Positions 12,903 through 64,000 of a stretch of 64,000 nucleotides of DNA are shown piece by piece. The position numbers and the translations under genes were made by a program. The notes below the pieces were generated by a model, which saw only the letters and a list, made by a program, of their open reading frames with translations, ran no database searches and was not told the origin of the DNA. Source of the DNA: Verrucomicrobiota bacterium (GTDB taxonomy: Bacteria > Verrucomicrobiota > Verrucomicrobiia > Limisphaerales > UBA1096); contig JASMKO010000057.1 of the NCBI GenBank assembly GCA_030749225.1, positions 4,724-68,723 of the forward strand, read 5' to 3'. Position 1 is the stretch's first letter. Each line of letters opens with the position of its first letter.

Positions 12903-15785
12903 GTTGGCGTTAAGCAGGATGCGGCAAAAGCCGTTGAGAGCAACGTCAGCATCAGTCCCTTGGCCCAGCAGACGACTGAAAAACTGAGTCTCCTCTGCGG
13001 TTGGCGGGCGGCCAAGCGCCAACCGACAGGCCAGGCGCACTTTTTCCTCCGCGCTATCCCCTGCCTCGCGCTGGATGCGCTTGGCCAAGGCGGCGGCTTC
13101 CTCGTTCACAAAGTCGCCGTTAAACAGCGACAACGCCTGCAACGGAGTGACAGAGGTGCGGCGGCGAGGCCGTGAGTCGTCGCATACAGTCGAGTCAAAC
13201 GCCTGCATGAACGGCATGTTCAGTGTTCGCTGCTGGTAGATGTAAATACTGCGCTTGCGGCCGGCGTGGTCGAGCTGCGTGTCCCACTTGTTCTCGGAGT
13301 ACTTCACCGTCTGAGCGATGTCGCCCGGCAGCGGCGGGAAAATCGGCAGACCGTACTGCTCCAGGTTCAGCCGACCACTCACCGCGAGCACGTTGTCGCG
13401 GATCGACTCGGCGTCGAGCCGCCGCTGCTCGCGGCGCCACCACAGGTTGTTCAACGGATCGACCGCCAAGCCCGCCTCATTTTTCACCAGCGACAACTGT
13501 CGATAGGTGCTGGAAGTGACGATCAGTCGGTGCATTGACTTCAGGCTCCAACCGCTGTCGACGAAGCGCCCGGCCAGCCAGTCGAGTAATCCTGTGTGTG
13601 TCGCGCCACCGCTGAGTTTGCCGAAGTCGCTTGGTGTTCGTACCATGCCACGGCCGAAGTGCCAGTACCACAGGCGGTTCATCATCACGCGGGAGGTGAG
13701 CGGGTTGTCCCGTTTGGCGATCCACTTGGCCAAGGCCATGCGGCGGCTCCGCGTGGGCCAGCGCTTGAACGGGTCAAGCCGGACAGCCGCCGGTTTAGTG
13801 TGGCCGGCTATAATGCTCGGAAAACCGGCCTTCACTACCGGGCCGTGGTTGTCGTACTCACCGCGCAGCTTGACGGTGGTAACCGGCACACCCGGCTCGT
13901 ACGGCGGCCCGAACGAATGCCGCAACGACATGGCGACAGGCTTAAGCCGCTTGAGGTGCTGTTTGACGAAGCGCTCCCGGTTCTCCAGACGGTAAAACAG
14001 ATCCCGCTCGTTCTTTGTGAACAGGTCGTTGGAGTAGTCGTAGATTTGATCGCGCAGTTTTTTACCACTGGCTGCGGCCGGATTGATGAACGTCCCGAGC
14101 ATCGCGCCGGCGCCGCCGACCTCGAATCCGTATCCCTCGCCGGTGTGTTCTGCGGAAAATATGACCACGACCGAGCCAGCTTGGTCGTCGAGGAACTTGG
14201 CCAAGTCAGTACGAGAGAGGCTGCTTCGCAGAAAACTCTTGTCGAAGTGCAACGCCGGGGCTTGCCCAAGCCGCGTGAGCCTGGGCTGCCGACTCACCTC
14301 CACTTGGCCAAGCGCAGTCTTGGTGATCTTGTCCACCCACACGCTGACTCGGTCGCCCTCGGCCGGGTTGGGTGTCTCGGCGTTCGCGTCCAGGTCGGCT
14401 GCATCAAGCCAGAACCTCAGATCTTCAGCGGGCGGCCCGGACATCACCCCCTCACCGTGGTACTTGGCCTTCACATAGCGGTCGAGCTCGCCAAGCTTCT
14501 CGCTGTTAAGCGGTTGTCCGTAAATCATCACCTCTGCAAACGCCCCCTTGTGGCCGGCGTTTTTAGGCTGGCCGGTGCCCTCGGTATAGTCGCCGAGGCT
14601 GATGTACTCCGGTTTCGGAAGATCGCCGTACCACTTGCCGTTGTTCGAGCCGCTCTTACTGCCAAGCGCCCCGGCCGGCCGGCTGTCGGTGTGGAAAGTC
14701 CAGACTGTGCCATCGCTCGACGCGACGGTATAGTGCGGCTGGCCGTCGGTCACGTTCGTGGTGTCGTAAAGGTAGTCGTTACCCAGGCCGCCGCCATAAA
14801 TCTGCAGGCCGAACCCGGCATTGCGCCTGGCGGTGCGTGGCTCCAGTTGCTGTCTCAACTCGGCCAGTTTCGACTTGGCCTCGCCGACCTGATGCTGCAG
14901 CCGAGCACGCTTGTCGTTGATCAACACCTCCTCATGGGCACGATAAAACCGCGCCGACAAGGAGCCGCCGATCTGGAAACCGTCGCCCCGTTCAGGAGGC
15001 GGCAGCTGCACCGTCGAAAAGAACGCCTGCATGCGATAGAAGTCGGCAATCGGGATGGCGTCATGCTTGTGGTCGTGGCACTGCGCACAGCCCATGGTGA
15101 GCCCGAGAAACACGGAACTGACCGTCGAGGTCATCTCGCTGAGCAGCTCGTGCCGGGAGCGGTCGCCGCGCGGCTCGGTAAACGGCGCAAGCCGCAAAAA
15201 CGTCAGCGCGACTGTGCGCTCGGCATCCATCCCCGGCAGTTCGCCGGCGCCCATGATCTCGTTGAACTCGTCGCCGGCAATTTGTTCACGGATAAACAGG
15301 TCGTAAGGCTTGTCGCGGTTGAGCGAGTCGATGACGTAGTCGCGGTAGCGCCAAGCGTGCGGCATGTCGGGGTCGCCCTCGTAGCCGGCGGTATCGGCAT
15401 ACCGTGCCAAGTCGAGCCAGTAGCGCGCCCACCGTTCGCCATAACGCGGATCGTTGAGCAGCCGATCGACGAGCCGTTCGTAGGCAAGCGGGCTGCGGTC
15501 GTTGACGAAGGCGTCGGCGGCGTTCGGCTCCGGCGGCACACCAAGCAGGTCGAAATACAACCGCCGTACCAGCGTACGGCGCTTGGCCAACGGTGCAGGC
15601 TCGATACTTTTCGCCTCCAGCCGGGAGAGAATGAACGCGTCGATCGGGTTACTGACCCAGTTGGTGTTCGTCACCCCTGGGGGGACGATCGGAACGAGCG
15701 GCGTGAATGGCCAGCGCTTGGCCTGATCCGCGTGGCCAATCGCTCCCAACAACAGCGTGGCGGCGATGGTTGTAGAAAATCGCAT
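12882..15785 (-). CDS. DUF1549 (PSCyt2) / DUF1553 (PSD1) domain protein with a central LamG-like insert
   Basis: I reset the start to ATG 15785 (MRFSTTIAATLLLGAIGHA, a signal peptide). NPIDAFILSRLEAKSIEPAPLAKRRTLVRRLYFDLLGVPP is DUF1549-type. CAQCHDHKHDAIPIADFYRMQAFF and the C-terminal ...LLNANEFVYID are DUF1553-type. Confidence 0.9.
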   Translation of the reverse strand: MRFSTTIAATLLLGAIGHADQAKRWPFTPLVPIVPPGVTNTNWVSNPIDAFILSRLEAKSIEPAPLAKRRTLVRRLYFDLLGVPPEPNAADAFVNDRSPLAYERLVDRLLNDPRYGERWARYWLDLARYADTAGYEGDPDMPHAWRYRDYVIDSLNRDKPYDLFIREQIAGDEFNEIMGAGELPGMDAERTVALTFLRLAPFTEPRGDRSRHELLSEMTSTVSSVFLGLTMGCAQCHDHKHDAIPIADFYRMQAFFSTVQLPPPERGDGFQIGGSLSARFYRAHEEVLINDKRARLQHQVGEAKSKLAELRQQLEPRTARRNAGFGLQIYGGGLGNDYLYDTTNVTDGQPHYTVASSDGTVWTFHTDSRPAGALGSKSGSNNGKWYGDLPKPEYISLGDYTEGTGQPKNAGHKGAFAEVMIYGQPLNSEKLGELDRYVKAKYHGEGVMSGPPAEDLRFWLDAADLDANAETPNPAEGDRVSVWVDKITKTALGQVEVSRQPRLTRLGQAPALHFDKSFLRSSLSRTDLAKFLDDQAGSVVVIFSAEHTGEGYGFEVGGAGAMLGTFINPAAASGKKLRDQIYDYSNDLFTKNERDLFYRLENRERFVKQHLKRLKPVAMSLRHSFGPPYEPGVPVTTVKLRGEYDNHGPVVKAGFPSIIAGHTKPAAVRLDPFKRWPTRSRRMALAKWIAKRDNPLTSRVMMNRLWYWHFGRGMVRTPSDFGKLSGGATHTGLLDWLAGRFVDSGWSLKSMHRLIVTSSTYRQLSLVKNEAGLAVDPLNNLWWRREQRRLDAESIRDNVLAVSGRLNLEQYGLPIFPPLPGDIAQTVKYSENKWDTQLDHAGRKRSIYIYQQRTLNMPFMQAFDSTVCDDSRPRRRTSVTPLQALSLFNGDFVNEEAAALAKRIQREAGDSAEEKVRLACRLALGRPPTAEETQFFSRLLGQGTDADVALNGFCRILLNANEFVYID

Positions 15786-15823
15786 CGTCGTTTCTGCTTC
15801 GACGGAAATTAGACGCGCTGGGA

Positions 15824-15839
15824 CACGATTGCAATCGTG
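15824..15839. promoter_or_regulatory. Perfect 16-bp palindrome CACGATTGCAATCGTG in a 101-bp divergent intergenic region (candidate operator)
   Basis: I read it directly from the sequence. It lies between the divergent starts at 15785 (-) and 15887 (+). Confidence 0.35.
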
Positions 15840-15886
15840 CAGTTGAAGCATTGAAAACCGCCCCGATTTAGGTACGTTCCCGGCAC

Positions 15887-18800
15887 ATGACCAGTTCGCC
15901 CGAAAACCAGAACCGCTGTAAACCGCGCATTTTTTTACGCGCGGGGCTGTTGCTGCTGGCTCTGCTCTTTGCCACCCCGCCCAGTCAGGCGGTGACACTG
16001 ATCAACTACGAATCGGACTGGAAACTGTGGCGCGGCCGCAAAACCCCCAGCCGACCCGACTATTGGGCCTGGACCAAGGCAGCCCATGACGACTCGGACT
16101 GGGAAACCGCCCCGACCCCAGTATTCTTCGGCGAGAAGGTCACCGGCGGCACCGAACTGGAGGACATGAAGAGCCGCTACAACTCTTTTTTCCTCCGGCG
16201 CAAGTTCCACGCACCCGATCCGGACACAATTACCTCGATGACCCTGCGAGCCAAGGTGGACGACGGATTCGTCGCCTATATCAACGGCACTGAGGTGGCG
16301 CGGCACAATGTCGAAACCGAAAAACCCAAGTACAGCTCGGCTGCCTCCAAGGCAGCATCGGAGCCACTGCGTTTCCGCAACTATGCACTGAAAAACCCGG
16401 TTGACTTTCTTGTCGACGGCGAAAACACGATTGCCGTGATTGTGCTCAACCAGCGGCGCACCAGCCCGGACGCATTGTTCGATGCACGCCTTTCTGCAGT
16501 TTCGGTAGAAAGCGTCCCGCCCAAGGTAGCATCGGTCGATCCGCCACCCGGACTGACTTCGAACCTGAGCCGTGTCCTCATCACCTTTACGGAGCCAGTC
16601 ACCGGCTTGGATGCCGCCGACCTGCTGGCAAACGGCGTGCCAGCGCAGTCGGTCGAGGGCAGCGGCCGGTCGTGGCTGTTTCAACTCGGCAGCCTGCCCC
16701 AAGGCAAGGTGCGCCTCCACTGGGCCAACGGCCACGGCATCACCGACCAAGCGCAGAACCCAAACGCGTTCAACGCCACCGATACGGACAACCGCTGGAG
16801 CTACACCCACGCTGACGACAACCCGCCGTACGTCAAGCGAACCAACCCGCCGGCCGGGCTCACGGTGAAGTCGCTCGACGCAATTGAGGTGGAGTTCAGC
16901 ATGAACGTCAGTGGCGTGGACGCCAACGACCTCCAGATCAACGGTCAGCCGGCCCAGAGCGTGACCGGGATCAGTAAAAGCCGCTACCGGTTTGCGCTTG
17001 GCCAAACCCCCGGCCCCAAAGTGAAAATCTCCTGGAACCCGGACGCAGGCATCACCGGCACGAACCCGTTCAAGAAAGCCTTCCTGCCGCTTGGCTGGTT
17101 TTACCGAGTAGACCCCAACGCGCCACCGCCACCGCGCATCGTGATCTCCGAGATCATGTATCACCCAATCGAGGAACCGGACTTTGACAAGCGCGGCATG
17201 CCGGTGCTCGACCTGTCAGAGGACGTGCATGAGTTCATTGAACTGCACAACTTCAGCCGTGAAACTGTTGCTCTTGACAACTGGCGGATCAGCGGCGGCA
17301 TCGACTACGCCTTCCCGTCGGGAACCAAGATCGAGAGCGGTGACTACCTAGTCGTGGCGAAAAACCCCGAGCGCTTGACCGCCATCAAGGAATACCGCCT
17401 ATCCAGCGTGACGGTGCTGGGACCGTACACAGGCGTGCTTAGCAACAACGGCGAGCGAGTGAGCGTGGAGAACGACGGCGGCAACGCCGAGGACACCGTC
17501 CGCTACTCGGCCCAATTTCCCTGGCCCATGGGCGCAGACTCTATCGGCGCGGGGCCGAAGTGGTCCGGCATCGACCCGATGAAACACCAATATCGCGGCA
17601 TGTCACTGGAGCGGATCAACTTCTCCTTACCGGGCAGTGACCCTGCCAACTGGGTAGCGTCGCCTCTCGAGAAAAACGCCACGCCGGGCCGGTCGAACCA
17701 CATTGCCCGAAAGCGCTCGATGCCGGCACCCATTGTTACCTCCATCCGCGCGGCTGACCCCAACGGGGACACTCTGATCAGCAAACTCGAGGCCGTAACG
17801 ATCGCGGCCAAATTCTCCACAAATGAAACACTCACCGATGTCACGCTGGAATATTTTTACGACAACCTCGAAAAGGAGGGTGAAACCTTGGCCAAGCGGG
17901 AGATGAAACTGGAGCAAGGCAGTTGGACACACACGCTTCCCAAGAAACCAGACCGGACACTGGTGCGCTATCGTATCCTGGCCGACCTGGGCCAAGGTCT
18001 ACAGAAAATTTCGCCCCGCAAGAGCGATCCATACCAGTGGCACTCCTATTTCGTAATGCCGAAATTTAGCAATACACGAAAATACTTCGAGCTACTCATT
18101 CCGCGGAACGGCACCAGCCAACTCTCGAAAAACATGACTGCCAACCCGCGCAGCGGCTACCGCCCTGCGAAGGATGTCGTCCCACGAGGCCCGTGGAACG
18201 ACACCGTGCACGGCATCCTTGTTTATAACGGCGAGGTGCGCGATGTGTATGCCCGCTGGAACGGAAGCTTCTACCGCCGAAACAGCGGGCGCAACTCCTG
18301 GAAGGTACGCCTGCCGCGCTACAACCAGTTCGATGGCCAGAGCGACTTACTGTTCATGGACAAGGACAACGTGACCGTTGCCGGCCACACGCTGTACCGA
18401 GAACTGGGCCTGCCTACCTCGCACACCGAGTGGGTCGATGTCGCCATCAACAAGCGCAAGATGCGGCGCCTAATGGTGGAGGATCACAACGACCGTTTGC
18501 TCGAAAATTACCATGAGGACCAGGCCCGCCGAAACCCCGACACGGAGGTCGAGCCCAACGGCCACATCTTCAAGTCGAGTGGCATCCTGCAGAACCTCGG
18601 CCCGTACGGCCGGGGCGACGGCGGCAAACTGGGAACCAACGACGGCTGGGCGTCGTTGCAACGTTACGAGTGGATTTACTCTTCCAAAAACCAAGACTGG
18701 AAGGGACACACCGAACTGAAGGAAATGATCGATGGCCTAGCCAAGAACAAGAGCAACCGCGCTCGCCTCAAGAAATGGTTTGAGGCCAACTGGGACATCG

Positions 18801-21265
18801 AGTCACTCATGAGCTACATCGCCGTGCGCAACTGGATGGGCACGTGGGATGACACGGTCCACAATTTCTACATCTGGCGCCGGGCCGATGGGCGATGGGC
18901 ATTGTTACCGTGGGACTTCGACAACGACATGCGCAACGACTACATCAGCCGGTCCATCTTTATCGGCGAGGCCGGCAACCCCAACACCACCCACGGCACG
19001 CACACCATCAAAGATGCGTTCTTCAAAGCATTCCGGACAGAGTACAAAGAACACCTTTACTACCTGAACAACACGCTGCTCACACCGGAGAGCATCGGCC
19101 GCATGGGCCTGACCAGCTACACCGCATTCGCCCGTGGACGCCAGTCCAACGTCAACAAACAATGCGGCAATGTTAAAATCCCCAGCCAGCCCACCGCCGA
19201 ACAATTGACCGGCGGCGGCTCCGTCTACGCCCCAGCGTCGATGGTGGTATCAGCATTCTATAGTACGGACGCAGCAGCCACCCATGCCGAGACAATTTGG
19301 GAAATCCGCGCCGCCGACGCCTCATTCACCTATCCTGTTTTTAAGGCCAGAACTTCCGAAAAGCTGACTGAGATGCCGGTGCCATTTGATCTGCTTGAAT
19401 TCGGACGCACCTACTTTTGGAGAGCAACATACATTGACTCAAACGGACGCAAATCGCTGCCCAACAGCGAGGCCGGCTTCCGCTATGGCGGCCACGCGCG
19501 GTCGGAGGATCTCATTTCCCTCACCGACACGGAATGGAAATACAATGCCGACGGCAAAAACCTTGGCACGACCTGGCGCAAGGCCGAGTACGACGACTCC
19601 GCTTGGCCAAGTGGCAAGTCGTATCTAGGCCGCGCCACCTCCCGGCAAAAATACAAGATGACCACCACCCTCAAAATGGGGCCGAAGACGTTTTATTTCC
19701 GCAAAAAGTTCAACTTCGAGCCGCCGGCCGGCGGTGGTGAGTTGCAAATCAGATACCTTATCGATGATGGCGCGGTCTTTTACCTCAACGGCAAGCATAT
19801 TCACCGCGTGAACATGAAAGAGCGCGGCAGTATCAGCTACACCACGCGAGCCTTGAGTTCCGTAACCGACGCCGAGTTGAGCGGCAGCATCACACTCCCT
19901 GGAAAAACACTTAAGCAGGGGGAAAACCTCCTTGCAGTCGAGGTACACCAATACTCGACTAACGACAGGGATCTCGCATTCGGCATGAGCTTGAGCGCCA
20001 CCGTCGAGAGCCTACCCGACGGCGTCATCCTCAACGAGTTGATGGCCGCTAACCGCGGCTCGGTGACGAACGCCGACGCGAACCCCGACTGGATCGAGTT
20101 GCACAACCCAACCGACCGCGACATCGACCTTGGAGGTGCCGGCCTCGGCGACGGAGTCGCCCTTGAACCGACCTTCTTTTTCCCGGCGCAAACCATCCTG
20201 CCGACCAAGGGCCACCTCGTCGTCTGGTGCGACAACCAACAGGAAGCTCCCGGGCTACATACCGGGTTTGCGCTCGATGCCGATGGCCAGAATATCGCGC
20301 TGTGGTGGCCAAGCGATGAGGGGTTGAAAATCCAAGACGCCATCGGCTTCGGTCCTCAAGCCGGCGACTTCTCCATCGGGCGCGAGCCGGATGGCCTTGG
20401 CCCGTGGACACTCACCACCCCCACCCCAGGCTTGACCAATACCAAGTCGGACCTCGGCAGCAACCAGTCGCTCTCGATAAACGAATGGATGGCCCGGCCG
20501 GAGAATGGCAGCGACTGGCTCGAACTGTTCAACAAATCCACACTACCGGTCGCGATCGGCGGGCTGAAGCTGAGCGACGACTCGGCCCAGCCCGACAAGA
20601 CCGTCCTGCCGCCGCTCTCGTTCATCGGCCCAGGCGGATTCCTACGCTTGGCCGCGGACAACGCCCCCGCCGACGGGCCAACCCACCTCGGCTTCCGCCT
20701 GAGCGGTAGAGGCGAGGAAATCATCCTAATCGACACCAAGGACAAGGAGATCGACTCGGTGCTGTTTGGTGAGCAAACTAGGGGTGCCTCCTCAGGCCGT
20801 TACCCCGACGGAGCCAAGTCGATTGTTTTTTTCCCGAACAGCGCCACGCCGGGACGGGCCAACCTGATCCTCGGCGACGCGGACGAGGATGGCCTGCCGA
20901 ACCTTTGGGAGGACCAGTTCGGCCTCAACCCCAACGAATCGGCCGATGCCGCGCTCGATTCGGACCACGACGGTCACACCAACCTCGAGGAATACCTCGC
21001 CGGCACCCGGCCAGACGACGACTCCAGCGTTCTGGCACTGAGCCTTGCTCTGCACGAGCAAAACATAACCATCTCGTTCGAGGCGCAGACCGGACGGGCG
21101 TATGTGCTGTGGAGCACCGCTGATATCGCTGGAGGCAAGTGGATACAAGTGAAGACCTTCCCGTCCGAGGACGGCAAGCGCACGGTTACCTTCGGGATTC
21201 CCGCCGTACAACTGCCGCTACCCAACGGCTATTACCGACTCACGATCCCCGCGGCAAACGACTGA
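15887..21265 (+). CDS. Giant secreted CotH-kinase-like protein with three lamin-tail (LTD) domains, Ig-like repeats and a C-terminal TSP3/calcium-type Asp-rich segment
   Basis: The signal peptide ends ...LLLLALLFATPPSQA. LTD-like segments are IVISEIMYHP...HEFIELHN, VILNELMAAN...DWIELHNPTD and LSINEWMARPENGSDWLELFN. The CotH-like core is WKVRLPRYNQFDGQSDLLFMDKDN...HTLYRELGLPTSHTEWVDVAINKRKM. The Asp-rich end is DADEDGLPNLWEDQFGLNPNESADAALDSDHDGHTNLEEY. Confidence 0.88.
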   Translation: MTSSPENQNRCKPRIFLRAGLLLLALLFATPPSQAVTLINYESDWKLWRGRKTPSRPDYWAWTKAAHDDSDWETAPTPVFFGEKVTGGTELEDMKSRYNSFFLRRKFHAPDPDTITSMTLRAKVDDGFVAYINGTEVARHNVETEKPKYSSAASKAASEPLRFRNYALKNPVDFLVDGENTIAVIVLNQRRTSPDALFDARLSAVSVESVPPKVASVDPPPGLTSNLSRVLITFTEPVTGLDAADLLANGVPAQSVEGSGRSWLFQLGSLPQGKVRLHWANGHGITDQAQNPNAFNATDTDNRWSYTHADDNPPYVKRTNPPAGLTVKSLDAIEVEFSMNVSGVDANDLQINGQPAQSVTGISKSRYRFALGQTPGPKVKISWNPDAGITGTNPFKKAFLPLGWFYRVDPNAPPPPRIVISEIMYHPIEEPDFDKRGMPVLDLSEDVHEFIELHNFSRETVALDNWRISGGIDYAFPSGTKIESGDYLVVAKNPERLTAIKEYRLSSVTVLGPYTGVLSNNGERVSVENDGGNAEDTVRYSAQFPWPMGADSIGAGPKWSGIDPMKHQYRGMSLERINFSLPGSDPANWVASPLEKNATPGRSNHIARKRSMPAPIVTSIRAADPNGDTLISKLEAVTIAAKFSTNETLTDVTLEYFYDNLEKEGETLAKREMKLEQGSWTHTLPKKPDRTLVRYRILADLGQGLQKISPRKSDPYQWHSYFVMPKFSNTRKYFELLIPRNGTSQLSKNMTANPRSGYRPAKDVVPRGPWNDTVHGILVYNGEVRDVYARWNGSFYRRNSGRNSWKVRLPRYNQFDGQSDLLFMDKDNVTVAGHTLYRELGLPTSHTEWVDVAINKRKMRRLMVEDHNDRLLENYHEDQARRNPDTEVEPNGHIFKSSGILQNLGPYGRGDGGKLGTNDGWASLQRYEWIYSSKNQDWKGHTELKEMIDGLAKNKSNRARLKKWFEANWDIESLMSYIAVRNWMGTWDDTVHNFYIWRRADGRWALLPWDFDNDMRNDYISRSIFIGEAGNPNTTHGTHTIKDAFFKAFRTEYKEHLYYLNNTLLTPESIGRMGLTSYTAFARGRQSNVNKQCGNVKIPSQPTAEQLTGGGSVYAPASMVVSAFYSTDAAATHAETIWEIRAADASFTYPVFKARTSEKLTEMPVPFDLLEFGRTYFWRATYIDSNGRKSLPNSEAGFRYGGHARSEDLISLTDTEWKYNADGKNLGTTWRKAEYDDSAWPSGKSYLGRATSRQKYKMTTTLKMGPKTFYFRKKFNFEPPAGGGELQIRYLIDDGAVFYLNGKHIHRVNMKERGSISYTTRALSSVTDAELSGSITLPGKTLKQGENLLAVEVHQYSTNDRDLAFGMSLSATVESLPDGVILNELMAANRGSVTNADANPDWIELHNPTDRDIDLGGAGLGDGVALEPTFFFPAQTILPTKGHLVVWCDNQQEAPGLHTGFALDADGQNIALWWPSDEGLKIQDAIGFGPQAGDFSIGREPDGLGPWTLTTPTPGLTNTKSDLGSNQSLSINEWMARPENGSDWLELFNKSTLPVAIGGLKLSDDSAQPDKTVLPPLSFIGPGGFLRLAADNAPADGPTHLGFRLSGRGEEIILIDTKDKEIDSVLFGEQTRGASSGRYPDGAKSIVFFPNSATPGRANLILGDADEDGLPNLWEDQFGLNPNESADAALDSDHDGHTNLEEYLAGTRPDDDSSVLALSLALHEQNITISFEAQTGRAYVLWSTADIAGGKWIQVKTFPSEDGKRTVTFGIPAVQLPLPNGYYRLTIPAAND

Positions 21266-21271
21266 CGGTTG

Positions 21272-23263
21272 ATGAGCAACTTGTTGTCCACCCTAGACTC
21301 GGCTGGGCTGGAATTGATCCTTCCGGCGGGGCTTCTGCTGATCGCCGTCGTGCCCTTCCTTGCCCAAGCGACCCGCCTTCAGGCCACCGGCCTAGTGGCG
21401 TTTCCCCTCGCTCTGACCGCCGCTTTGGGGCTTTTCAAGTACACCTTGGACACCCGCAACGATGCAGCCCGCGACGCGCTGCTGAAGGCGGCCCCAGCAC
21501 AGACAAAGCTCGAGCCAGTCACCGCTCCGAACAACACATACACCTCGTCGCAAACATGCCGCGCCTGCCATCCCTCAGAATACCGCAGTTGGCACCACAG
21601 CTACCATCGTACGATGACCCAGTTGGCCAAGCCGGGGGCAATCCTATCCAAGTGGCACGGCACCAAACTGCCGCTTGGTCAAGCGCAACTGCTGCTTGAG
21701 AAAAAGCAGGGAGAGTACTGGGCTACCACAGTCGACGCGGACGGCAATGAGCAGAACCGGCAACGTGTGACCATGACCACAGGTTCACATCACCTGCAGG
21801 TTTATTGGACCGGCAACCAAACCGGCAACATGCAACACCCCTTCCCCTACGGCTGGCTAATAGCGGATCAGAAATGGGCACCGGTGCAAGACACGTTTCT
21901 GCACGACCCGAACCTCCCAATCGGAGGTGCGAAATGGAATGATAGCTGCATCAAATGCCACGCGGTTGCAGGCCGACCTGGGCCGGACAATCGCAACAGA
22001 ACTTTCCACTCCGAGACTGCGGAACTAGGCATCTCCTGCGAAGCATGTCACGGTCCAGCCGGTGCACACATAGCGCATTACCAGAATCCCGCCAAACGAT
22101 ACCTGGCGCACCTGGGCGACGGCACGACCCATGGCATCCTGAACCCCGGCGGCGGTTTAGACCACCGGTTGTCAGCGCAAGTCTGCGGCCAGTGTCACGC
22201 CTACCAGTATACCCCCAACAAGATGGACTGGCTCAGGAATGGTCCGCAATTCCTGCCGGGCAACCCGCTGAAAGCAAACACGACAGTTGTGCACGCCAGC
22301 TCCTTTGCCGGCACACAGCCAGCTCAGGGAGAGGAGACCAAAGCGTTTCTCTCCCGACACGGCCATCCCCACCCCGGCGACGACTGGTTGAACGACCGGT
22401 TCTGGCCGGATGGTATGGTGCGTGTCGCCGGCCGCGAGTATAATGGCCTGCTCGACACGCCCTGCTTTCAGCGAGGCAAAATGTCCTGCCTCTCCTGCCA
22501 CTCGATGCACGGTTACCATGACAACAACGACCAACTCGCCCCGCGCATGGCGACCAACGAGGCCTGCTTCCAGTGCCATGGTGATCTGCGCAGAAATCTG
22601 ACCGAACACACCAACCACTCCGCCGAATCGGAGGGTAGTCGTTGCTACAACTGCCACATGCCCCATACCACTTACGGCCTGCTTGGCGCCATCCGCAGTC
22701 ACCAGATCGATTCCCCCAAAGTTGCAACGCAATTGGATACAGGGCGCCCCAATGCCTGCAACCTCTGCCACCTCGACCGGACACTTGGGTGGACCCGGCG
22801 CCATCTGGCCGAATGGTACGGCCATCCAGAGCCGCAACTCGACAACGACGACAAGTCGACCTCGTCGATGCTCAGGATGCTGCTCCAAGGCGACGCCGGC
22901 CAACGTGCGATTGCTGCATGGCACATGGGTTGGGAACCGGCGCGCGGTGCCTCCGGCGACGACTGGCAGACGCCATGGTTAATTCGCACGATGGACGACC
23001 GCTACGCGGCGGTTCGCCATATTGCCCACAAGGCACTTACGGTCCATCCCTCCTTAGCCGACATGCCGTTCGACTATACCGCCTCATTGGCCAAGCGCGC
23101 GGGACAAATCGACGCAATCCGGCGCCGCTGGACAGCCGCTGAACTGCTTGTTAAAGCGCCGGCAGCCGAACTTCTGCTCGACGCCCGGGGCCACCCGCTG
23201 GAAGATGCTGCCAGCCGATTGACCGCCCAACGCAACAACCGCCCGATGATCCTCCAAGAATGA
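21272..23263 (+). CDS. Membrane-anchored multiheme c-type cytochrome (8 CxxCH motifs) with a helical-repeat C-terminal region
   Basis: The CxxCH motifs are CRACH, CIKCH, CEACH, CGQCH, CLSCH, CFQCH, CYNCH and CNLCH. There are two N-terminal hydrophobic helices. It starts 6 nt after the CotH stop. Confidence 0.85.
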   Translation: MSNLLSTLDSAGLELILPAGLLLIAVVPFLAQATRLQATGLVAFPLALTAALGLFKYTLDTRNDAARDALLKAAPAQTKLEPVTAPNNTYTSSQTCRACHPSEYRSWHHSYHRTMTQLAKPGAILSKWHGTKLPLGQAQLLLEKKQGEYWATTVDADGNEQNRQRVTMTTGSHHLQVYWTGNQTGNMQHPFPYGWLIADQKWAPVQDTFLHDPNLPIGGAKWNDSCIKCHAVAGRPGPDNRNRTFHSETAELGISCEACHGPAGAHIAHYQNPAKRYLAHLGDGTTHGILNPGGGLDHRLSAQVCGQCHAYQYTPNKMDWLRNGPQFLPGNPLKANTTVVHASSFAGTQPAQGEETKAFLSRHGHPHPGDDWLNDRFWPDGMVRVAGREYNGLLDTPCFQRGKMSCLSCHSMHGYHDNNDQLAPRMATNEACFQCHGDLRRNLTEHTNHSAESEGSRCYNCHMPHTTYGLLGAIRSHQIDSPKVATQLDTGRPNACNLCHLDRTLGWTRRHLAEWYGHPEPQLDNDDKSTSSMLRMLLQGDAGQRAIAAWHMGWEPARGASGDDWQTPWLIRTMDDRYAAVRHIAHKALTVHPSLADMPFDYTASLAKRAGQIDAIRRRWTAAELLVKAPAAELLLDARGHPLEDAASRLTAQRNNRPMILQE

Positions 23264-31499: not shown

Positions 31500-31506
31500 T
31501 TCACAA

Positions 31507-31542
31507 AAACGCCGTTGGCCAAGCGCTTGACCAACGGCGTTT
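31507..31542. terminator. Bidirectional intrinsic terminator between convergent genes
   Basis: A 12-bp stem pairs AAACGCCGTTGG (31507-31518) with CCAACGGCGTTT (31531-31542). The loop is ccaagcgcttga. It is A-rich 5' and gives a U-run on the minus-strand transcript (…GCGUUUUUG). The HIP-like motif sits at the stem/loop boundary. Confidence 0.6.
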
Positions 31543-31570
31543 CGTGAAGGAAAAAAAATCTGTTTGCCGA

Positions 31571-48870: not shown

Positions 48871-48872
48871 AT

Positions 48873-53769: not shown

Positions 53770-54162
53770 ATGAAGACCGAGCTGACCATCACGACCGACC
53801 CGATCGACGAGGCGGCCTTGGCCAAGCGCCGCGTGATGGACAACGGCATGGGGGCAGTCGTTTGTTTTCTGGGCGTCGTGCGCGGGAACGAGGGCAATGA
53901 AACGATCGCCGCGATCGAGTACGAGGCGTTCGAGCCGATGGCGCGACGCCAGTTTGAGTTCTTGTTCGACGCGCTTGGGCAACGCTGGCCTGTGGAGGCG
54001 GTGCGCGTGGTTCATCGCATCGGCACAGTGCCGGTGAACGAGCCGTCGCTCTGGGTGGAGGTGATTGCACCGCACCGCGCGGAGGCATTCGATGCCTGCC
54101 AATTCCTCATCGACGAGATGAAACAGAAGGTGCCGATCTGGAAAAAGCCGATCCCGATTTAG
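53770..54162 (+). CDS. moaE: Molybdopterin synthase catalytic subunit
   Basis: GAVVCFLGVVRGNEGNETIAAIEYEAFEPMA...SLWVEVIAPHRAEAFDACQFLIDEMKQKVPIWKK is MoaE-like. Confidence 0.85.
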   Translation: MKTELTITTDPIDEAALAKRRVMDNGMGAVVCFLGVVRGNEGNETIAAIEYEAFEPMARRQFEFLFDALGQRWPVEAVRVVHRIGTVPVNEPSLWVEVIAPHRAEAFDACQFLIDEMKQKVPIWKKPIPI

Positions 54163-54223: not shown

Positions 54224-55558
54224 TCAGCCCAACACTTCGCGGGCGTAGACGAGAGCCTGATCGCGGGTGGTAAGGTCACCGGCGAGTTGGCGTTGGCGGA
54301 TGTCATCAAGCAACTTCCCCAGCTCCGGCCCCGGCGCTTGGCCAAGTGCGATTAGGGCCGCACCGTCGACGAGTGGTTGCTGCAAATCCGGCTGCTTTCG
54401 GAACTCGGCGAACTTGGCCTCGAGAAACTCGAAGTTCTCCAGCTTGCCGCTTGAGGCGAGGCTGTCGAGCCGGTGCAGCGCCAACTCATCCCGGAAAGTC
54501 GGGCGGAGGAACAGCTTTCGCAGCGTGGCCGAGCGCATTTGTGGCGCGTCCTTCAACTGGTTGTGGTGGCACACGCAGGTTTTCACCGCCGCACTGTCGG
54601 CCTTGGGGAAGCGCAGGCGATTCATGATTTCCTGCACCATCTCGACGCCGATGGTTTCATGGCCGAGAAACCGAATGCGCCCTTCGTCGCGGGTCTGCGT
54701 CACCGGTTTGGCGATGTCGTGCAGCAGCACGGCCCAGATAAGCGTCGTGTCCGCGTCGTCCGGCAGATGACTGAGCATGAGGCGAATGTGGGTGAACACA
54801 TCTCCCTCAGGATGATATTCCGGCGGCTGTTCGCAGCCGCGTGTGGCGGCCAGCTCCGGCAGAACCTCAGGCAGCAGCCGGCTTTCGTGCAGCAGGTCGA
54901 GCCCGCGCGCAGCGTGCGGCGGTCGGAACAGTTTAATCAACTCGTCGCGGCGGCGCTCTGCGCTCACCTCACGGATTGCGGCGGCGTGCTGCCGCACGGC
55001 AGTCAAAGTCCCCGGTTCGAGGCCGAAGCCCAACTGCGCCGCGAACCGCACAGCGCGCAGCATGCGCAACCGGTCCTCGCCGAAGCGTTGCGCCGGGTCG
55101 CCGATGGTGCAAATACGCCGGGCCTCGAGGTCGGCTTGGCCGCCGACCCAGTCGTGCAGTTCGTCGGCAAGCGGGTCGTAAAACAGGCCGTTGATGGTGA
55201 AGTCGCGCCGCAGGGCATCCTCGCGCGCGTCGGTGAATCGCACGCTGCTGGGCCGCCGTCCGTCGGCGTACCCGCCCTCGGCCCGGAAAGTGGCCACCTG
55301 ATACTCATGCCCGCCCTCAAGCACGATGATTACACCGAACTGTTTGCCCACCGGGATGATCTTGCGGAACAGCCGCTTGATGTCGTCCGGCTTGGCATCG
55401 GTGGCTATGTCGTAGTCAGTTGGCGCTTGGCCAAGCCTGACGTCACGCACACAGCCGCCGACCCAAAACGCCTGAAACCCGGCCCCGACCAGGCGATTGG
55501 CCAAGCGGAGCGCGCCGGCCTCGAGGCTGTCGACTGGGAGGTTGGCTGTGTCGGGCAT
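54224..55558 (-). CDS. cca: CCA-adding tRNA nucleotidyltransferase (PolyA-pol head plus HD domain)
   Basis: I reset the start to ATG 55558 (MPDTANLPV...). Supporting motifs are FWVGGCVRDVRLGQAPTDYDIATDA, RADGR.P...F..DALRRDFTINGLFYD, and the HD domain LLHDIAKP. The track ORF's extra 150 N-terminal aa are low-complexity and overlap ptsI. Confidence 0.85.
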   Translation of the reverse strand: MPDTANLPVDSLEAGALRLANRLVGAGFQAFWVGGCVRDVRLGQAPTDYDIATDAKPDDIKRLFRKIIPVGKQFGVIIVLEGGHEYQVATFRAEGGYADGRRPSSVRFTDAREDALRRDFTINGLFYDPLADELHDWVGGQADLEARRICTIGDPAQRFGEDRLRMLRAVRFAAQLGFGLEPGTLTAVRQHAAAIREVSAERRRDELIKLFRPPHAARGLDLLHESRLLPEVLPELAATRGCEQPPEYHPEGDVFTHIRLMLSHLPDDADTTLIWAVLLHDIAKPVTQTRDEGRIRFLGHETIGVEMVQEIMNRLRFPKADSAAVKTCVCHHNQLKDAPQMRSATLRKLFLRPTFRDELALHRLDSLASSGKLENFEFLEAKFAEFRKQPDLQQPLVDGAALIALGQAPGPELGKLLDDIRQRQLAGDLTTRDQALVYAREVLG

Positions 55559-55730: not shown

Positions 55731-57479
55731 ATGCTGCGCGGCATCCCCGCATCGCAGGGGGTGAGCCGCAGCAATGTGGTGGTGCTGGATCGTACGCGGA
55801 TCAACCCGGCCAAGAGGAGCATCGTTGAGGCCGACTTGGCCAAGGAGGAGGACCGGCTCAAGGCGTCGCTGACGGAAACACGAAGCCAGATTGTCACCAT
55901 GCAGAATCGGCTGCGCGAGGCGATGGGCGCCAAGGAGGCATTGATCTTCGACGCGCACCTGCTCGTGCTGGAGGACCCGATGCTGCTCGAGGAAGTGTCG
56001 CGGTTCATCCGGAAGGATCTGGTCTCGGCCGAGTACGCATTTTACTCGGCGTCGGAAAAATATGCCGACGCCCTGTCCAATGTGGACGACGCCTACCTGA
56101 GCGAGCGCGCCGCCGACGTCCGCGACGTGACGCAGCGCGTGCTGGCCAACCTCATGGGCCGGCCGACCTGCGCTGGGCTTGGCGACCTGGCCGAGCCGTG
56201 CATCGTGGTAGCCCACGATCTGACGCCCTCCGACACGGCGATGATGGACTCGACAAAGGTGCTTGGATTCGTCACCGAGGTCGGCAGCCGCACATCGCAC
56301 ACCGCCATCCTCGCTCGGTCGCTGCGCATCCCGGCGGTACTCGGGCTGGGCGGGATGATCGGCGAACTGCGGAGCGGCCAGTCGGTGTTGATCGACGGCT
56401 TCAACGGCTTTGTCGTCATCGAGCCGTCGGACGAGACGCTATTTGAGTACGGCCAACTGGTCGAACGGCAGGCCTCGATCGAGGAGAGCCTTGAGATCAT
56501 CCACGACGACGAGGCGGAAACGAAGGACGGCCATCGGATCATCCTCTCCGCCAACATTGAGTTGGCGACCGACGTCGAGGGTGTCCTGCAATGTGGCGCG
56601 ACCGGCGTCGGCCTGTTCCGAACCGAGTTCCTGTTCATCAACCGCAGCGACCTGCCGAACGAGGAGGAACAGTTCGCCGCCTACCGCCAAGTGACCGAGT
56701 CGCTTGCGCCTGCCCCGGTGATCATCCGCACACTCGACCTCGGCGGCGACAAGTTGCTCTCGCACGTCAACGTAGCCGAGGAGATGAATCCGTTCCTTGG
56801 CTGGCGCGCCATCCGACTCTGCCTCGAGGAGAAGGATTTGTTCCGCACGCAGCTCCGAGCCATCCTGCGAGCCAGCGTCTTTGGCAACTTGAAAATCATG
56901 TATCCGATGGTCTCCGGCGTTGAGGAACTCGAGGCCGCCAACGTGCTGCTCGACGAATGCCGCGAACAACTCCGCGCGGAAGGCGCGGCCTTTGCCGACA
57001 CCATCGAGATCGGGGTGATGATCGAGACGCCGTCCGCAGCGATGATCGCAGACAGCCTCGCGCGGCGCGTGCAATTTTTCAGCATCGGCACCAACGACCT
57101 AATCCAGTACGCGCTGGCCGTCGACCGGTTGAATGAGAAGATCGCCCACCTTTACGAACCGACGCACCCGGGCATTCTGCGCCTGATCAAGGCCACGGTG
57201 GACGCCGGCCAGGCACACGGCATCTGGACCGGGGTCTGCGGCGAGATGGCCGGCGAGATGGCCGCCGTGCCGCTACTGCTGGGACTGGGCGTCGCCGAGT
57301 TGAGCGTAACTCCGTCGATTGTACCGCGCGTGAAGATGCTCATCCGCAGCATTGAGATGGCGCAGGCACGGGAGCTGGCGGCCTTCGCGCTGGACAGCGA
57401 TTCGCCGAAGGAAATCCTCGCCCGCGCCGAGGCCTTGGCCAAAGCGGCCGTGCCGGATTTTTTCGAGGGAGCGGCGTAA
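55731..57479 (+). CDS. ptsI: Phosphoenolpyruvate-protein phosphotransferase (PTS Enzyme I)
   Basis: I reset the start to ATG 55731 (MLRGIPASQGV...). The phospho-His region is GSRTSHTAILARSLRIPAV. The PEP-utilizer C-terminal part is FFSIGTNDLIQY...GVCGEMAG. Confidence 0.9.
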   Translation: MLRGIPASQGVSRSNVVVLDRTRINPAKRSIVEADLAKEEDRLKASLTETRSQIVTMQNRLREAMGAKEALIFDAHLLVLEDPMLLEEVSRFIRKDLVSAEYAFYSASEKYADALSNVDDAYLSERAADVRDVTQRVLANLMGRPTCAGLGDLAEPCIVVAHDLTPSDTAMMDSTKVLGFVTEVGSRTSHTAILARSLRIPAVLGLGGMIGELRSGQSVLIDGFNGFVVIEPSDETLFEYGQLVERQASIEESLEIIHDDEAETKDGHRIILSANIELATDVEGVLQCGATGVGLFRTEFLFINRSDLPNEEEQFAAYRQVTESLAPAPVIIRTLDLGGDKLLSHVNVAEEMNPFLGWRAIRLCLEEKDLFRTQLRAILRASVFGNLKIMYPMVSGVEELEAANVLLDECREQLRAEGAAFADTIEIGVMIETPSAAMIADSLARRVQFFSIGTNDLIQYALAVDRLNEKIAHLYEPTHPGILRLIKATVDAGQAHGIWTGVCGEMAGEMAAVPLLLGLGVAELSVTPSIVPRVKMLIRSIEMAQARELAAFALDSDSPKEILARAEALAKAAVPDFFEGAA

Positions 57480-57509
57480 CGCCGACGCGACGGCGCTTGG
57501 CCAAGTCCC

Positions 57510-62864: not shown

Positions 62865-62934
62865 CCGCCTGGCCAAACCGAGCGGACCTGACTCATTCCA
62901 CTTAAAAAAGAAGGAATAACCGCAGAGTAAAGCG

Positions 62935-63366
62935 TCAGACGTCAATAACGTCATCGTCATTGGGCCGGGTGCCCGTGCCTGCGGGTCCAGATGCCCGAAA
63001 ATTGCCGACCTGTGCGACGAATTTCTTTTTGACTCTCTCTCGGATGAGGGCGCGGAAGCCCGGCACCATCAGGGCGAAGCCAGCCAGGTCGGTCAGCAGT
63101 CCAGGTGTCAATAGCACGATGCCGCCGATCAACACCAGCAGCCCGTCGATCAACTCCGCCGTCGGCACCCGGCCGGCAGCCGTCTCGGCCTGTATCCGTG
63201 CGAGGATCGAGTAGCCTTGGCTCTTGGCCAAGTACGCCCCCCAAGCGCCAGTGAGGATCACGAGCATCAGCGTGGCGGGCAACCCCACACGACTACCGAC
63301 AACAGCCAATAGGTACAATTCCACCAGCGGAATTGTGATGAACAGGATGAGGAGTCTTCCGAACAT
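62935..63366 (-). CDS. fxsA: FxsA-family cytoplasmic membrane protein
   Basis: MFGRLLILFITIPLVELYLLAVVGSRVG...LLTPGLLTDLAGFALMVPGFR is the FxsA signature. Confidence 0.8.
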   Translation of the reverse strand: MFGRLLILFITIPLVELYLLAVVGSRVGLPATLMLVILTGAWGAYLAKSQGYSILARIQAETAAGRVPTAELIDGLLVLIGGIVLLTPGLLTDLAGFALMVPGFRALIRERVKKKFVAQVGNFRASGPAGTGTRPNDDDVIDV

Positions 63367-63372
63367 TCCCTC

Positions 63373-64000
63373 TCAATCTTGGCCAAGCGCCTGAGCCATG
63401 CGCTCACCGACACAGGCGTAGGTCTCTAGACCGTTGGCAGTGTTTTCCAACAGGTCGGCGTCGAATTCAACCCGACCTTTTTCGAACAGCACAACGACGC
63501 TGGAACCGCCGAAGGCAAAGTAGCCCTTCTCGTCGCCCTTGGCCACCGCCTCGCCGGGCATGTAGGTCTGCCGGATGCCGCCGACCATGGTTGCGCCAAT
63601 CTCGACGAACTGCACCTGGCCCAGCACAGGCGACTCGATCGATGTCACCACTCGCTTGTTCTCCCAAAAAATCGACGGCCGCGTGACGATCGCGATCGGG
63701 TTGACCGAGTAGAGCCAGCCGTTGATCAAGCGCGGAATACCGGCCTCGCCCGCGCACGGGAAATGAAACCGGTGATAGTCCACCGGACAAAGCCGCGAAA
63801 GCAGCATCGAGCCCCCATCGTAGCGCTTGGCCAAGCCTTCATCCCCGAGGAACCGCGCGAGGTCGAACGACTGGCTCTTGACGAAAAAATCGGTCTTGGC
63901 GGAGATGTCGACAAACGCCAAGTGACGCCCGTCCGCCGGGAACACCACCGAACCGGCGGCGGCATCGACCGGCCGCGCGCCGGGCTTGAGTTTGCGATAG
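63373..64000 (-). CDS. psd: Phosphatidylserine decarboxylase family proenzyme; 5' end runs off the window
   Basis: …VVFPADGRHLAF…, …CPVDYHRFHFP… and the self-cleavage-type motif GYFAFGGSSVVVLFE are present. The frame stays open upstream of the track's GTG at 63948, reading ...YRKLKPGARPVDAAAGS. Confidence 0.85.
   Translation of the reverse strand, partial: YRKLKPGARPVDAAAGSVVFPADGRHLAFVDISAKTDFFVKSQSFDLARFLGDEGLAKRYDGGSMLLSRLCPVDYHRFHFPCAGEAGIPRLINGWLYSVNPIAIVTRPSIFWENKRVVTSIESPVLGQVQFVEIGATMVGGIRQTYMPGEAVAKGDEKGYFAFGGSSVVVLFEKGRVEFDADLLENTANGLETYACVGERMAQALGQD

Follow-up and report, generated by a model that had tools for sequence, protein, structure and literature searches.

Sequence analysis of a 64,000-nucleotide (nt) stretch of Verrucomicrobiota DNA, part of contig JASMKO010000057.1 and referred to as a whole as the window, revealed 51 exact copies of the palindromic octamer TTGGCCAA. 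We are highly confident that this word is a DNA-level signature of the highly iterated palindrome (HIP) kind. It acts as DNA and is not a peptide, an RNA element, or the remnant of a mobile element. Our preferred reading, to which we assign a probability of roughly 0.55, is a composite one that draws on analogy with known HIPs: the octamer would be a HIP-type word recognized by a protein, probably methylated at its TGGCCA/GGCC core and upheld by selection or biased repair. An earlier note on this DNA had proposed a signature like that of the cyanobacterial palindrome HIP1, acting at the level of DNA and being neither a protein repeat nor a local artifact. The proposal withstood every test that the note had named for its refutation, as described below for Markov-corrected statistics, codon-pair preferences, and occurrence in the rest of the genome.

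Enrichment and anatomy of the palindrome

Dinucleotide-preserving shuffles of the window contained 1.46 ± 1.21 copies of TTGGCCAA (maximum, 5), and none of 100 shuffles reached the observed 51. Positions 12001 to 64000, with a G+C content (GC) of ~60%, hold 49 sites (0.94 per kb, or 942 per Mb). Markov models of order 1, 2, and 3 predict 1.09, 2.7, and 4.0 sites there, giving observed-to-expected ratios (O/E) of 46, 18, and 12, and the enrichment claimed earlier thus persists after correction. The maximal-order expectation (~43) is circular, as the constituent 7-mers are almost confined to the motif; we therefore used the lower orders and coding-aware shuffles. The 49 positions previously located by eye were all correct, and two more sites lie outside the range of that list, at 4262 and 6247.

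The octamer is the top 8-mer of the window and its sole strongly enriched palindromic octamer. The runner-up, CCGGCCGG, occurs 11 times against 2.9 expected, and the remaining palindromic octamers, when pooled, fall slightly under expectation. The inner hexamer TGGCCA is found 106 times (17 expected), and the top 10-mer of the window is CTTGGCCAAG, with 28 copies against 0.07 expected. This 10-mer reflects the immediate flanks, where C is at position −1 in 44 of the 51 sites and G at position +1 in 34. The three positions further out on each side show G/C/G at ~50% apiece, and beyond ±4 nt no flank information was detected in the 51 sites. The 16-mer consensus GCGCTTGGCCAAGCGC given in the earlier note was therefore too strong: its outer GCG/CGC positions are each occupied in ~50% of cases, and neither the 16-mer nor the 14-mer CGCTTGGCCAAGCG has a single copy in positions 12001 to 64000, where the 12-mer GCTTGGCCAAGC has four. 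Direct-repeat searches found no repeat built around TTGGCCAA.

The C...G extension is symmetric on the coding strand and goes beyond codon usage. C occupies position −1 in 25 of the 34 frame-0 sites, compared with a third-position background of 40% (P = 8 × 10−5), and the Lys codons AAG and AAA stand at 29:3 in the motif versus 474:253 elsewhere (P = 0.002). The true unit is the octamer, with the extension (CTTGGCCAAG) present in the high-GC lineage only. Octamers that differ from the word by one base mainly do so at the outer positions (CTGGCCAA, 19 copies; GTGGCCAA, 13 copies; inner variants, ≤7), and the same is seen in the 36 metagenomic loci described below. Over 52 kb, the spacing of sites is indistinguishable from random at the kilobase scale, with no regularity or clustering (coefficient of variation [CV], 0.86 versus 0.98); 52 contiguous kb is too short for a periodicity of 10 to 90 kb, the scale known for HIP1.

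Reading frames and imprint on the proteome

Genes were taken as the longest open reading frames and corrected by the gene table of an identical metagenomic contig. More than 90% of the copies are intragenic and in frame, two to four are intergenic, and site density is alike in coding and noncoding DNA. Thirty-five of the 51 sites read TTG-GCC-AAx (Leu-Ala-Lys or Leu-Ala-Asn), 12 read xTT-GGC-CAA (mostly Leu-Gly-Gln), and 2 read Trp-Pro, which bears out the previous statement that the word appears in several frames and in intergenic DNA. The word settles in the frame that is best tolerated, Leu-Ala-Lys first and Leu-Gly-Gln second.

Codon preferences do not produce these sites. Against 47 sites observed in coding DNA, shuffling synonymous codons within genes gave 5.25 ± 2.1 (maximum, 12 in 500 shuffles), and shuffling codon order gave 1.5. 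The motif uses the minor codons TTG, which makes up 18% of Leu codons, and CAA; TTG-GCC encodes 34 of the 48 LA[KN] tripeptides where 3.8 would be expected. An explanation by codon pairs, which had been named as a possible refutation, consequently fails.

The tripeptides encoded by the word are in excess. Leu-Ala-Lys (LAK) occurs 43 times in the window versus 7.7 expected from composition (O/E, 5.6), or ~35 extra tripeptides per 17,000 residues, and Leu-Gly-Gln (LGQ) has an O/E of 4.1; LAR, LAE, VAK, and IAK have ratios close to 1. The excess recurs in high-GC relatives (LAK, 5.0; LGQ, 4.3). In a clade that lacks the motif and whose XylB is 75% identical, the ratios are 1.4 and 1.2, and in 80 control loci they are 1.7 and 1.0. 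Together, the codon-usage shuffles and the restriction of the LAK and LGQ excess to motif-bearing lineages indicate that a DNA-level signal has been imposed on the proteins and not the reverse.

Distribution across relatives, metagenomes, and phage-like contigs

Pfam matches in the window are typical of the Planctomycetes-Verrucomicrobia-Chlamydiae (PVC) group (PSCyt2/PSD1, sulfatases, and a BatA-MoxR operon). Homologues of PtsI and XylB are labeled Pedosphaera sp., Verrucomicrobiales, and Verrucomicrobiota, all of them from metagenome-assembled genomes. The loci used for comparison, with our handles, are as follows; the control loci are genomes among the matches listed for MoxR, all at ≤67% identity.

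L081: 99.9% nt identity to the window; GC 61%; 18 sites in 14.6 kb
L082 to L088, L093, L094: syntenic, 84-88% nt identity; GC 58-63%; 0.46-1.29 sites per kb, O/E 19-79
L089, L095 (marine metagenomes): XylB 86-87% identical; GC 41-43%; TTGGCCAA is the top 8-mer, O/E 8-12, without the C...G extension
L090, L091: XylB 75% identical; GC 54-59%; 0 sites
80 control loci (other PVC and other phyla): MoxR 51-67% identical; GC mixed; 0.033 sites per kb over 1.28 Mb

The XylB proteins of L089 and L095 are 86-87% identical to that encoded at 36085-37671 of the window despite a GC of 41-43% versus ~60%, and the octamer survives this shift.

When metagenomes were scanned with a single 14-mer version of the motif, 120 loci matched, of which 36 were motif dense (233 kb from many samples; GC, 53-64%). 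Beyond the ascertaining sites, these 36 loci contain 148 copies of TTGGCCAA versus 5.9 expected, with the flank logo of the window, and the neighboring genes include unrelated housekeeping genes such as ftsK and moeA as well as PSCyt2/PSD1 genes. The syntenic relatives and the 36 loci overall carry 0.5-1.4 sites per kb. As both sets are motif dense, absence of the word from the rest of the genome, which would have made it the local artifact considered in the earlier note, is ruled out: the motif is found elsewhere at similar density. The word extends over whole genomes and throughout the clade, and its phylogenetic limit is sharp. Assemblies GCA_022451065.1 and GCA_964459315.1 are examples of members that bear the motif, and GCA_044224905.1 is a relative that lacks it.

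Among viral contigs of IMG/VR that match the 14-mer, two partial contigs have TTGGCCAA as their top 8-mer. L141 (IMGVR_UViG_3300008120_000302) carries six sites in 5.6 kb and a match to a tape measure protein, and L147 (IMGVR_UViG_3300033076_000093) carries five sites in 11 kb and encodes a 2252-amino-acid (aa) protein with an LPD38 polyvalent-protein domain. These contigs may be phages or prophages of the clade, and the host word is present on at least some phage-like DNA.

Site list, conservation, and turnover

Sites from the exact search are listed below without strand (strand "."), each with its reading frame, gene, and state in relatives; sites for which no sequence is given are TTGGCCAA, and the low-GC island heads the list as a contrast region.

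1-12000: contrast region, low-GC island with ankyrin-repeat genes, 2 sites
4262-4269: TTGGCCAA site in the low-GC island, DPP IV/S9 peptidase gene, T-L-A-N-A
6247-6254: TTGGCCAA site in the low-GC island, DPP IV/S9 peptidase gene, Trp-Pro frame
13081-13088: L-A-K frame, PSCyt2/PSD1 gene
13726-13733: L-A-K frame, PSCyt2/PSD1 gene
14197-14204: L-A-K frame, PSCyt2/PSD1 gene
14304-14311: L-G-Q frame, PSCyt2/PSD1 gene
15583-15590: L-A-K frame, PSCyt2/PSD1 gene
16998-17005: L-G-Q frame, LTD/CotH gene
17888-17895: L-A-K frame, LTD/CotH gene
19603-19610: Trp-Pro frame, LTD/CotH gene
21623-21630: L-A-K frame, multihaem cytochrome gene
23087-23094: L-A-K frame, multihaem cytochrome gene
24450-24457: L-G-Q frame, CitMHS transporter gene
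26161-26168: L-A-K frame, PIG-L deacetylase gene; TTGGCCAG in L088
27888-27895: L-A-K frame, ThuA/GDSL/DUF7133 gene; TTGACCAA in L088 (center transition)
27972-27979: L-A-K frame, ThuA/GDSL/DUF7133 gene; kept in L088
28785-28792: L-A-K frame, ThuA/GDSL/DUF7133 gene; TTAGCCAA in L088, TTGGTCAA in L094
30499-30506: L-G-Q frame, ThuA/GDSL/DUF7133 gene; kept in L088
31506-31543: 38-nt near-perfect palindrome AAAAACGCCG-TTGGCCAA-GCGC-TTGACCAA-CGGCGTTT, intergenic, between convergent genes
32798-32805: L-A-K frame, sulfatase gene
32852-32859: L-A-K frame, sulfatase gene; kept in L088
32999-33006: L-A-K frame, sulfatase gene; kept in L088
34406-34413: at or just upstream of a sulfatase start, where the called TTG start is the motif itself; probably intergenic
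35969-35976: L-A-K frame, second sulfatase gene; kept in L088
36052-36071: tandem pair GTGGCCAA-GCGC-TTGGCCAA between the xylulokinase and sulfatase genes; a one-off site and the perfect site at 36064
38507-38514: L-A-K frame, hypothetical gene
40699-40706: L-A-K frame, GATase1-like gene; kept in L088
43009-43016: V-G-Q frame, 1291-aa hypothetical gene; kept in L088
44318-44325: L-A-K frame, 1291-aa hypothetical gene; kept in L088
44750-44757: L-A-K frame, 1291-aa hypothetical gene
46557-46564: L-G-Q frame, BatA/VWA gene
49752-49759: L-A-K frame, TPR/peptidase-MA gene; kept in L082 and L086
50379-50386: L-A-K frame, TPR/peptidase-MA gene; TTGGCCAG in L082 and L086 (gain in the window lineage)
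50409-50416: L-A-K frame, TPR/peptidase-MA gene; kept in L082 and L086
50451-50458: L-A-K frame, TPR/peptidase-MA gene; lost in L082
51729-51736: L-A-K frame, TPR/peptidase-MA gene
52211-52218: F-G-Q frame, TPR/peptidase-MA gene; CTGGCCAA in L082 and L086 (gain in the window lineage)
53608-53615: L-A-K frame, ThiS gene
53818-53825: L-A-K frame, MoaE gene; kept in L082 and L086
54338-54345: L-G-Q frame, Cca gene
55427-55434: L-G-Q frame, Cca gene; kept in L082 and L086
55497-55504: L-A-N frame, Cca gene; TTGACCAA in L086 (center transition)
55836-55843: D-L-A-K-E, PtsI; CCGGCCGG at the orthologous position of L086
57435-57442: L-A-K frame, PtsI
57497-57504: intergenic, between ptsI and the TMEM260-like/TPR gene; kept in L082 and L093
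57640-57647: L-A-K frame, TMEM260-like/TPR gene; TTGGCCAG in L082 and L093, TTGACCAA in L086
57876-57883: L-G-Q frame, TMEM260-like/TPR gene; kept in L082 and L086
62168-62175: L-A-K frame, NUDIX gene; kept in L082 and L086
63224-63231: L-A-K frame, hypothetical gene
63379-63386: L-G-Q frame, hypothetical gene
63827-63834: L-A-K frame, hypothetical gene

At 55836-55843, the window and L086 differ symmetrically at four bases, one palindrome (TTGGCCAA) standing against another (CCGGCCGG). Between ptsI and the TMEM260-like/TPR gene (window positions ~57485-57497), L082 has an insertion of ~170 nt that is not in the window, L086, or L093 and that bears its own copy of GCTTGGCCAAGC.

Following the conservation test of Xu et al. 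for HIP1 (PMC5861425), we compared the retention of sites with that of other octamers in the identical reading frame. Window sites were kept in 12/18 cases in L082, 12/17 in L093, 8/17 in L086, 9/16 in L088, and 7/15 in L094. Non-overlapping combinations of these relatives gave 17 of 33 sites kept versus 11.1 expected and 19 of 33 versus 13.1 (P ≈ 0.02-0.03), so orthologous sites persist ~1.5 times as often as control octamers, a modest excess in the direction seen for HIP1. In the low-GC lineage, L095 has orthologs of four of the five L089 sites.

Alignments relative to the window contain 59 orthologous positions with a perfect site in at least one lineage. Of the 58 distinct nonidentical words at these positions, 32 are one mismatch off and 13 are two off, and the dominant variants on the coding strand, CTG-GCC-AA (11) and GGC-CAG (4), are synonymous transitions to preferred codons. 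Sites hence decay chiefly by TTG-to-CTG and CAA-to-CAG changes and are regained by the reverse change. With L086 as the outgroup, we counted about four gains and five losses on the window and L082 branches. This turnover resembles a balance in which codon pressure is opposed by a force that restores the word.

The center of the motif behaves differently from its surroundings. Compared with the orthologous codons of relatives, GCC codons in window motifs show a synonymous third-position change in 1 of 57 cases, compared with 174 of ~1,200 elsewhere in those genes, and the nonsynonymous central G/C transitions (GTC plus ACC) in 6 of 57 cases, compared with 39 of ~1,200 outside (6:1 in the motif versus 39:174 outside; P = 3 × 10−4 by Fisher's test). 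The six events lie at six separate sites. Within the central CC, the second C hardly ever changes, although its change would be silent, and the first C is exchanged with T in excess despite the cost in amino acids. These substitutions lend indirect support to a special status of the central cytosine. Judged from them, the center would fit either a cytosine at TTGG(m)CCAA that is hypermutable and may be methylated or the processing of T:G mismatches there. The T-containing words TTGACCAA and TTGGTCAA are not depleted, with 7 copies versus 1.5-2.1 expected in the window and 14 versus 7.8 in the 36 loci, which speaks against a simple origin by very-short-patch (VSP) repair. Cytosine methylation combined with VSP repair had been raised in the earlier note as a possible mechanism, next to a binding or uptake site.

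Sequence context in the window

The low-GC island at positions 1-12000 (GC, 45-49%) contains two sites, with an O/E of 4.7 versus 46 in the rest of the window; at the density of the rest, a count of two or fewer is improbable (P = 0.0009). The word is one that DNA of foreign composition has not taken on. GC at third codon positions is 0.33-0.51 in the island versus 0.7-0.8 elsewhere in the window. The island carries paralogous ankyrin-repeat genes (811-1704, 2132-3160, 3330-3935, and 9617-11101) that have in common a conserved lipoprotein-type signal peptide and a module at the 3′ end and intergenic junction (repeat families D6, D8, and D9), and the 99-nt ankyrin periodicity accounts for repeated words such as GATGTGAATGC. 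Related ankyrin genes are found at other locations in the relatives L084 and L086. No tRNA gene was found in the whole window, and hence none flanks the island.

Two intergenic places carry motif pairs 12 nt apart, in the form TTGGCCAA-GCGC-TTGRCCAA. The pair at 31506-31543 consists of a perfect site at 31515 and a one-off site at 31527, flanked by A5 and T3, and folds into a strong terminator-like hairpin (−26/−32 kcal/mol; z, −4.5/−6.7). The structure is kept in L088 and L094, where the arms are one or two mismatches from the motif. From its predicted fold, the element is probably a bidirectional terminator. The pair at 36052-36071 has no significant fold. The motif hairpins escaped a scan for consensus terminators and were detected by folding.

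A conserved operon at 44832-49718 (BatA/VWA - DUF58 - MoxR [AAA_3] - DUF4159), followed by the TPR/peptidase-MA gene, is syntenic in all close relatives. The MoxR (47866-48870) and xylulokinase (36085-37671) genes are motif free.

The palindrome GGGCCC (ApaI-type site) is strongly avoided, with 2 copies versus 23.7 expected in positions 12001 to 64000 and an O/E of 0.12 in the relatives L082, L086, L088, and L094 and of 0.23 in the 36 metagenomic loci. In the latter, GAGCTC, AACGTT, and CAGCTG are likewise avoided. GGGCCC falls outside the top five avoided palindromic hexamers of the control loci. The avoidance suggests restriction pressure in the clade, in contrast to the enrichment of TGGCCA.

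Comparison with known iterated words

In cyanobacteria, HIP1 (GCGATCGC) reaches 300-2700 copies per Mb, a 15- to 300-fold excess (PMC4390886, PMC5861425), and its extensions, methyltransferases, and conservation are treated in the same two papers. It is methylated by DmtA/DmtC (PMC4390886, PMC6105098), and its one-nucleotide variants concentrate at the outermost positions, an observation from which methylation was argued to target the inner hexamer as its core (PMC4390886). HIP1 is periodic at 10-90 kb, and its sites and codons are conserved above controls (PMC5861425). A methylation-dependent boost of transformation by HIP1 has been found experimentally (10.1101/2024.09.10.611283). An alternate HIP with a GGCC core, CAGGCCTG, has been reported together with an uptake hypothesis (10.64898/2026.06.24.733823), and GGCC is itself a methylation target in cyanobacteria (M.Ssp6803II; PMC6560206).

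TTGGCCAA resembles HIP1 in being a perfect palindromic octamer that is not part of a longer repeat, at ~940 copies per Mb and ~46-fold excess. Like HIP1, it is dispersed in all frames and in intergenic DNA, is not explained by codon usage, has palindrome-preserving flank extensions in some lineages, and is both clade limited and genome-wide. The one-off variants at outer positions are a further likeness, although here they are mostly synonymous TTG/CTG and CAA/CAG changes, as is the conservation of sites and codons above controls, which is modest here and comes from a small sample. The two words differ in sequence (TTGGCCAA versus GCGATCGC), with TTGGCCAA having 50% GC and A/T ends in a genome of 60% GC, and in phylum, with gene content and protein names placing the window in Verrucomicrobiota. 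Cognate methyltransferases are recognized for HIP1, whereas the one proposed for TTGGCCAA is putative. The word has every testable feature that defines the HIP class but is not HIP1 proper.

The alternate HIPs CAGGCCTG of Synechococcus PCC 6312 and GGGATCCC of Yellowstone Synechococcus strains are likewise lineage-specific palindromes. CAGGCCTG has the GGCC core in common with TTGGCCAA and differs in its outer bases (CA..TG versus TT..AA). These alternate words lie in a phylum that otherwise uses HIP1, whereas the relatives of the window with 75% identical XylB have nothing comparable to TTGGCCAA.

Uptake signal sequences (USSs) of Pasteurellaceae and DNA uptake sequences (DUSs) of Neisseriaceae are asymmetric words with experimentally shown uptake specificity. 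They occur at ~1 per kb, are common to related species, are frame biased, leave a peptide imprint, and occasionally form terminator-like hairpin pairs. TTGGCCAA is similar to them in its density of ~1 per kb across related species, its proteome imprint, and its occasional paired copies; of the two pairs, that at 31506-31543 folds strongly and that at 36052-36071 does not. It differs in being a perfect palindrome with symmetric flanks and not an asymmetric core of 9-12 nt. As in the Dcm/Vsr system of Escherichia coli, the frequencies of words around the site may be tied to cytosine methylation and T:G mismatch repair. In E. coli, however, VSP effects on word counts are far smaller than 45-fold and substrate words are depleted, whereas TTGGCCAA is in 45-fold excess, with all of its 8-10 positions specified and its T variants undepleted. 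Oriented chromosomal motifs such as Chi and the FtsK-orienting polar sequences (KOPS), which are skewed between strands with respect to replication, were discarded as counterparts, a palindrome having no orientation.

Alternative explanations

A DNA uptake sequence could arise by molecular drive without methylation if competent cells preferred fragments with TTGGCCAA and recombination spread the word. The density of ~1 per kb common to related species would agree with this, as would the frame bias and tripeptide imprint, which resemble those of USSs, the two intergenic pairs (of which that between convergent genes is a strong hairpin), and the scarcity of sites in DNA of foreign composition; HIP1 itself has now been proposed as an uptake signal (10.64898/2026.06.24.733823). 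We nonetheless regard pure uptake drive as unlikely, since it does not predict the host-like density on at least one phage-like contig and leaves the center-specific substitution pattern unexplained. The recognized uptake sequences are asymmetric 9- to 12-mers and TTGGCCAA is a perfect palindrome; competence genes turned up neither in the window nor in ~0.5 Mb of DNA from the lineage, a sample too small to establish their absence. The phage-like contig would instead be expected if all DNA replicating in the cells were converted, as in a functionless by-product of context-specific mutation or repair bias, for example by a Vsr-like enzyme and a GGCC/TGGCCA cytosine methyltransferase that turn near-matches into the word. 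Gains from one-off sites by single transitions, the rough balance of gains (4) and losses (5), and the excess of C/T differences at the central cytosine all suit such a process. Yet its substrate words TTGACCAA and TTGGTCAA are not depleted (7 versus 1.5-2.1 expected), repair of one cytosine cannot by itself specify 8-10 positions or give a 45-fold excess, the bias would need great strength to displace preferred codons and alter amino acids, and the core stays constant from 63% to 41% GC, all of which makes this origin decidedly improbable.

Palindromic symmetry and graded information would also suit a dimeric binder, such as an abundant clade-specific protein that organizes the chromosome or nucleoid; the equal density in coding and noncoding DNA and the conservation above background are compatible with this, and such a role has been argued for HIP1 from its periodicity (PMC5861425). 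We consider it very unlikely here, given that spacing in 52 kb is random-like (CV, 0.86 versus 0.98), a candidate protein is lacking, and the center-specific substitution pattern is unexplained. Selection at the level of proteins or codons for Leu-Ala-Lys peptides or codon pairs, which the 35 of 51 sites that read L-A-K/N might suggest, is rejected: 12 sites read G-Q, 2 read W-P, and 2-4 lie between genes, TTG-GCC is used in 34 of 48 LA[KN] tripeptides against 3.8 expected, LAR, LAE, VAK, and IAK are unenriched, LAK has an O/E of 1.4-1.7 in outgroups versus 5.0-5.6, and the flank symmetry lies on the DNA and not on the peptide. We likewise reject remnants of a dispersed mobile or repetitive element, such as repetitive extragenic palindromes or bacterial interspersed mosaic elements (REP/BIME) or miniature inverted-repeat transposable elements (MITEs). 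Two intergenic copies do sit within longer palindromes, but >90% of copies are intragenic and in frame, and copies occupy orthologous positions in relatives. Conservation does not extend beyond ±4 nt, whereas REP, BIME, or MITE units comprise at least 20 nt and are intergenic.

Proposed explanation

We favor the reading in which a HIP-type word is recognized by a protein and maintained. A perfectly symmetric word of 8-10 bp, with information fading from the center, would be read by a dimeric sequence-specific protein, and the likeliest reader, by analogy with HIP1 and CAGGCCTG, would be an orphan DNA methyltransferase with TGGCCA/GGCC, the core, as its target. The excess of C/T exchanges at the first C of the central CC, beside the frozen second C, would fit a methylated, deamination-prone cytosine (TTGG(m)CCAA). 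The abundance of the word would then be upheld by a force that restores sites and is strong enough to override codon preference and some amino acid preference; selection may favor the tagged state, repair may be biased by methylation, or the two may act together. The likeliest use, again on the example of HIP1, would be a mark of "self" in DNA uptake, recombination, or repair.

Several observations weigh against this reading. The excess in conservation is modest (~1.5-fold; P ≈ 0.02) and comes from only ~33 sites. The bias of variants toward outer positions resembles that of HIP1 but can for the most part be put down to synonymous TTG/CTG and CAA/CAG turnover, and spacing is random-like at the kilobase scale. 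The center-transition signal consists of six events whose direction, loss or gain, is mostly unsettled, and TTGACCAA and TTGGTCAA are no more enriched than other transition variants. Finally, neither the window nor ~0.5 Mb of DNA from the lineage yielded a methyltransferase, Vsr, or competence gene; amounting to no more than about one-tenth of a genome, this sample is uninformative. When all lineage DNA was screened with regular expressions for motif IV of 5-methylcytosine methyltransferases and for Vsr motifs, the single match, in L147, was spurious according to Pfam.

Implications

In its fullest form, which we put forward tentatively, the interpretation is that of an independent HIP-type system in marine and aquatic Verrucomicrobiota, a methylation-linked "self" tag for uptake or recombination with a drive strong enough to overwrite codons. 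Hyper-abundant palindromes have hitherto been regarded as a cyanobacterial peculiarity, and their function is disputed among methyl-directed repair, nucleoid structure, and a signal for uptake or recombination. Our literature search found no account of TTGGCCAA or of any HIP-like word in Verrucomicrobiota in searchable full texts, outside which most subscription journals lie, and TTGGCCAA is apparently the first counterpart of HIP1 outside cyanobacteria.

The case demonstrates the strength with which a DNA-level signal can shape protein sequence. In practical terms, TTGGCCAA is a near-diagnostic k-mer marker for binning the contigs, and possibly the phages, of an uncultured clade. A second, unrelated case, with another sequence in another phylum, a sharp boundary, and a low-GC sister lineage, would be a natural replicate for finding the genes responsible. 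If the interpretation is true, the 30-year-old question of HIP1 function would become testable by comparison, and the genes that co-occur with the word in both phyla, be they methyltransferase, reader, or uptake machinery, would point to the mechanism.

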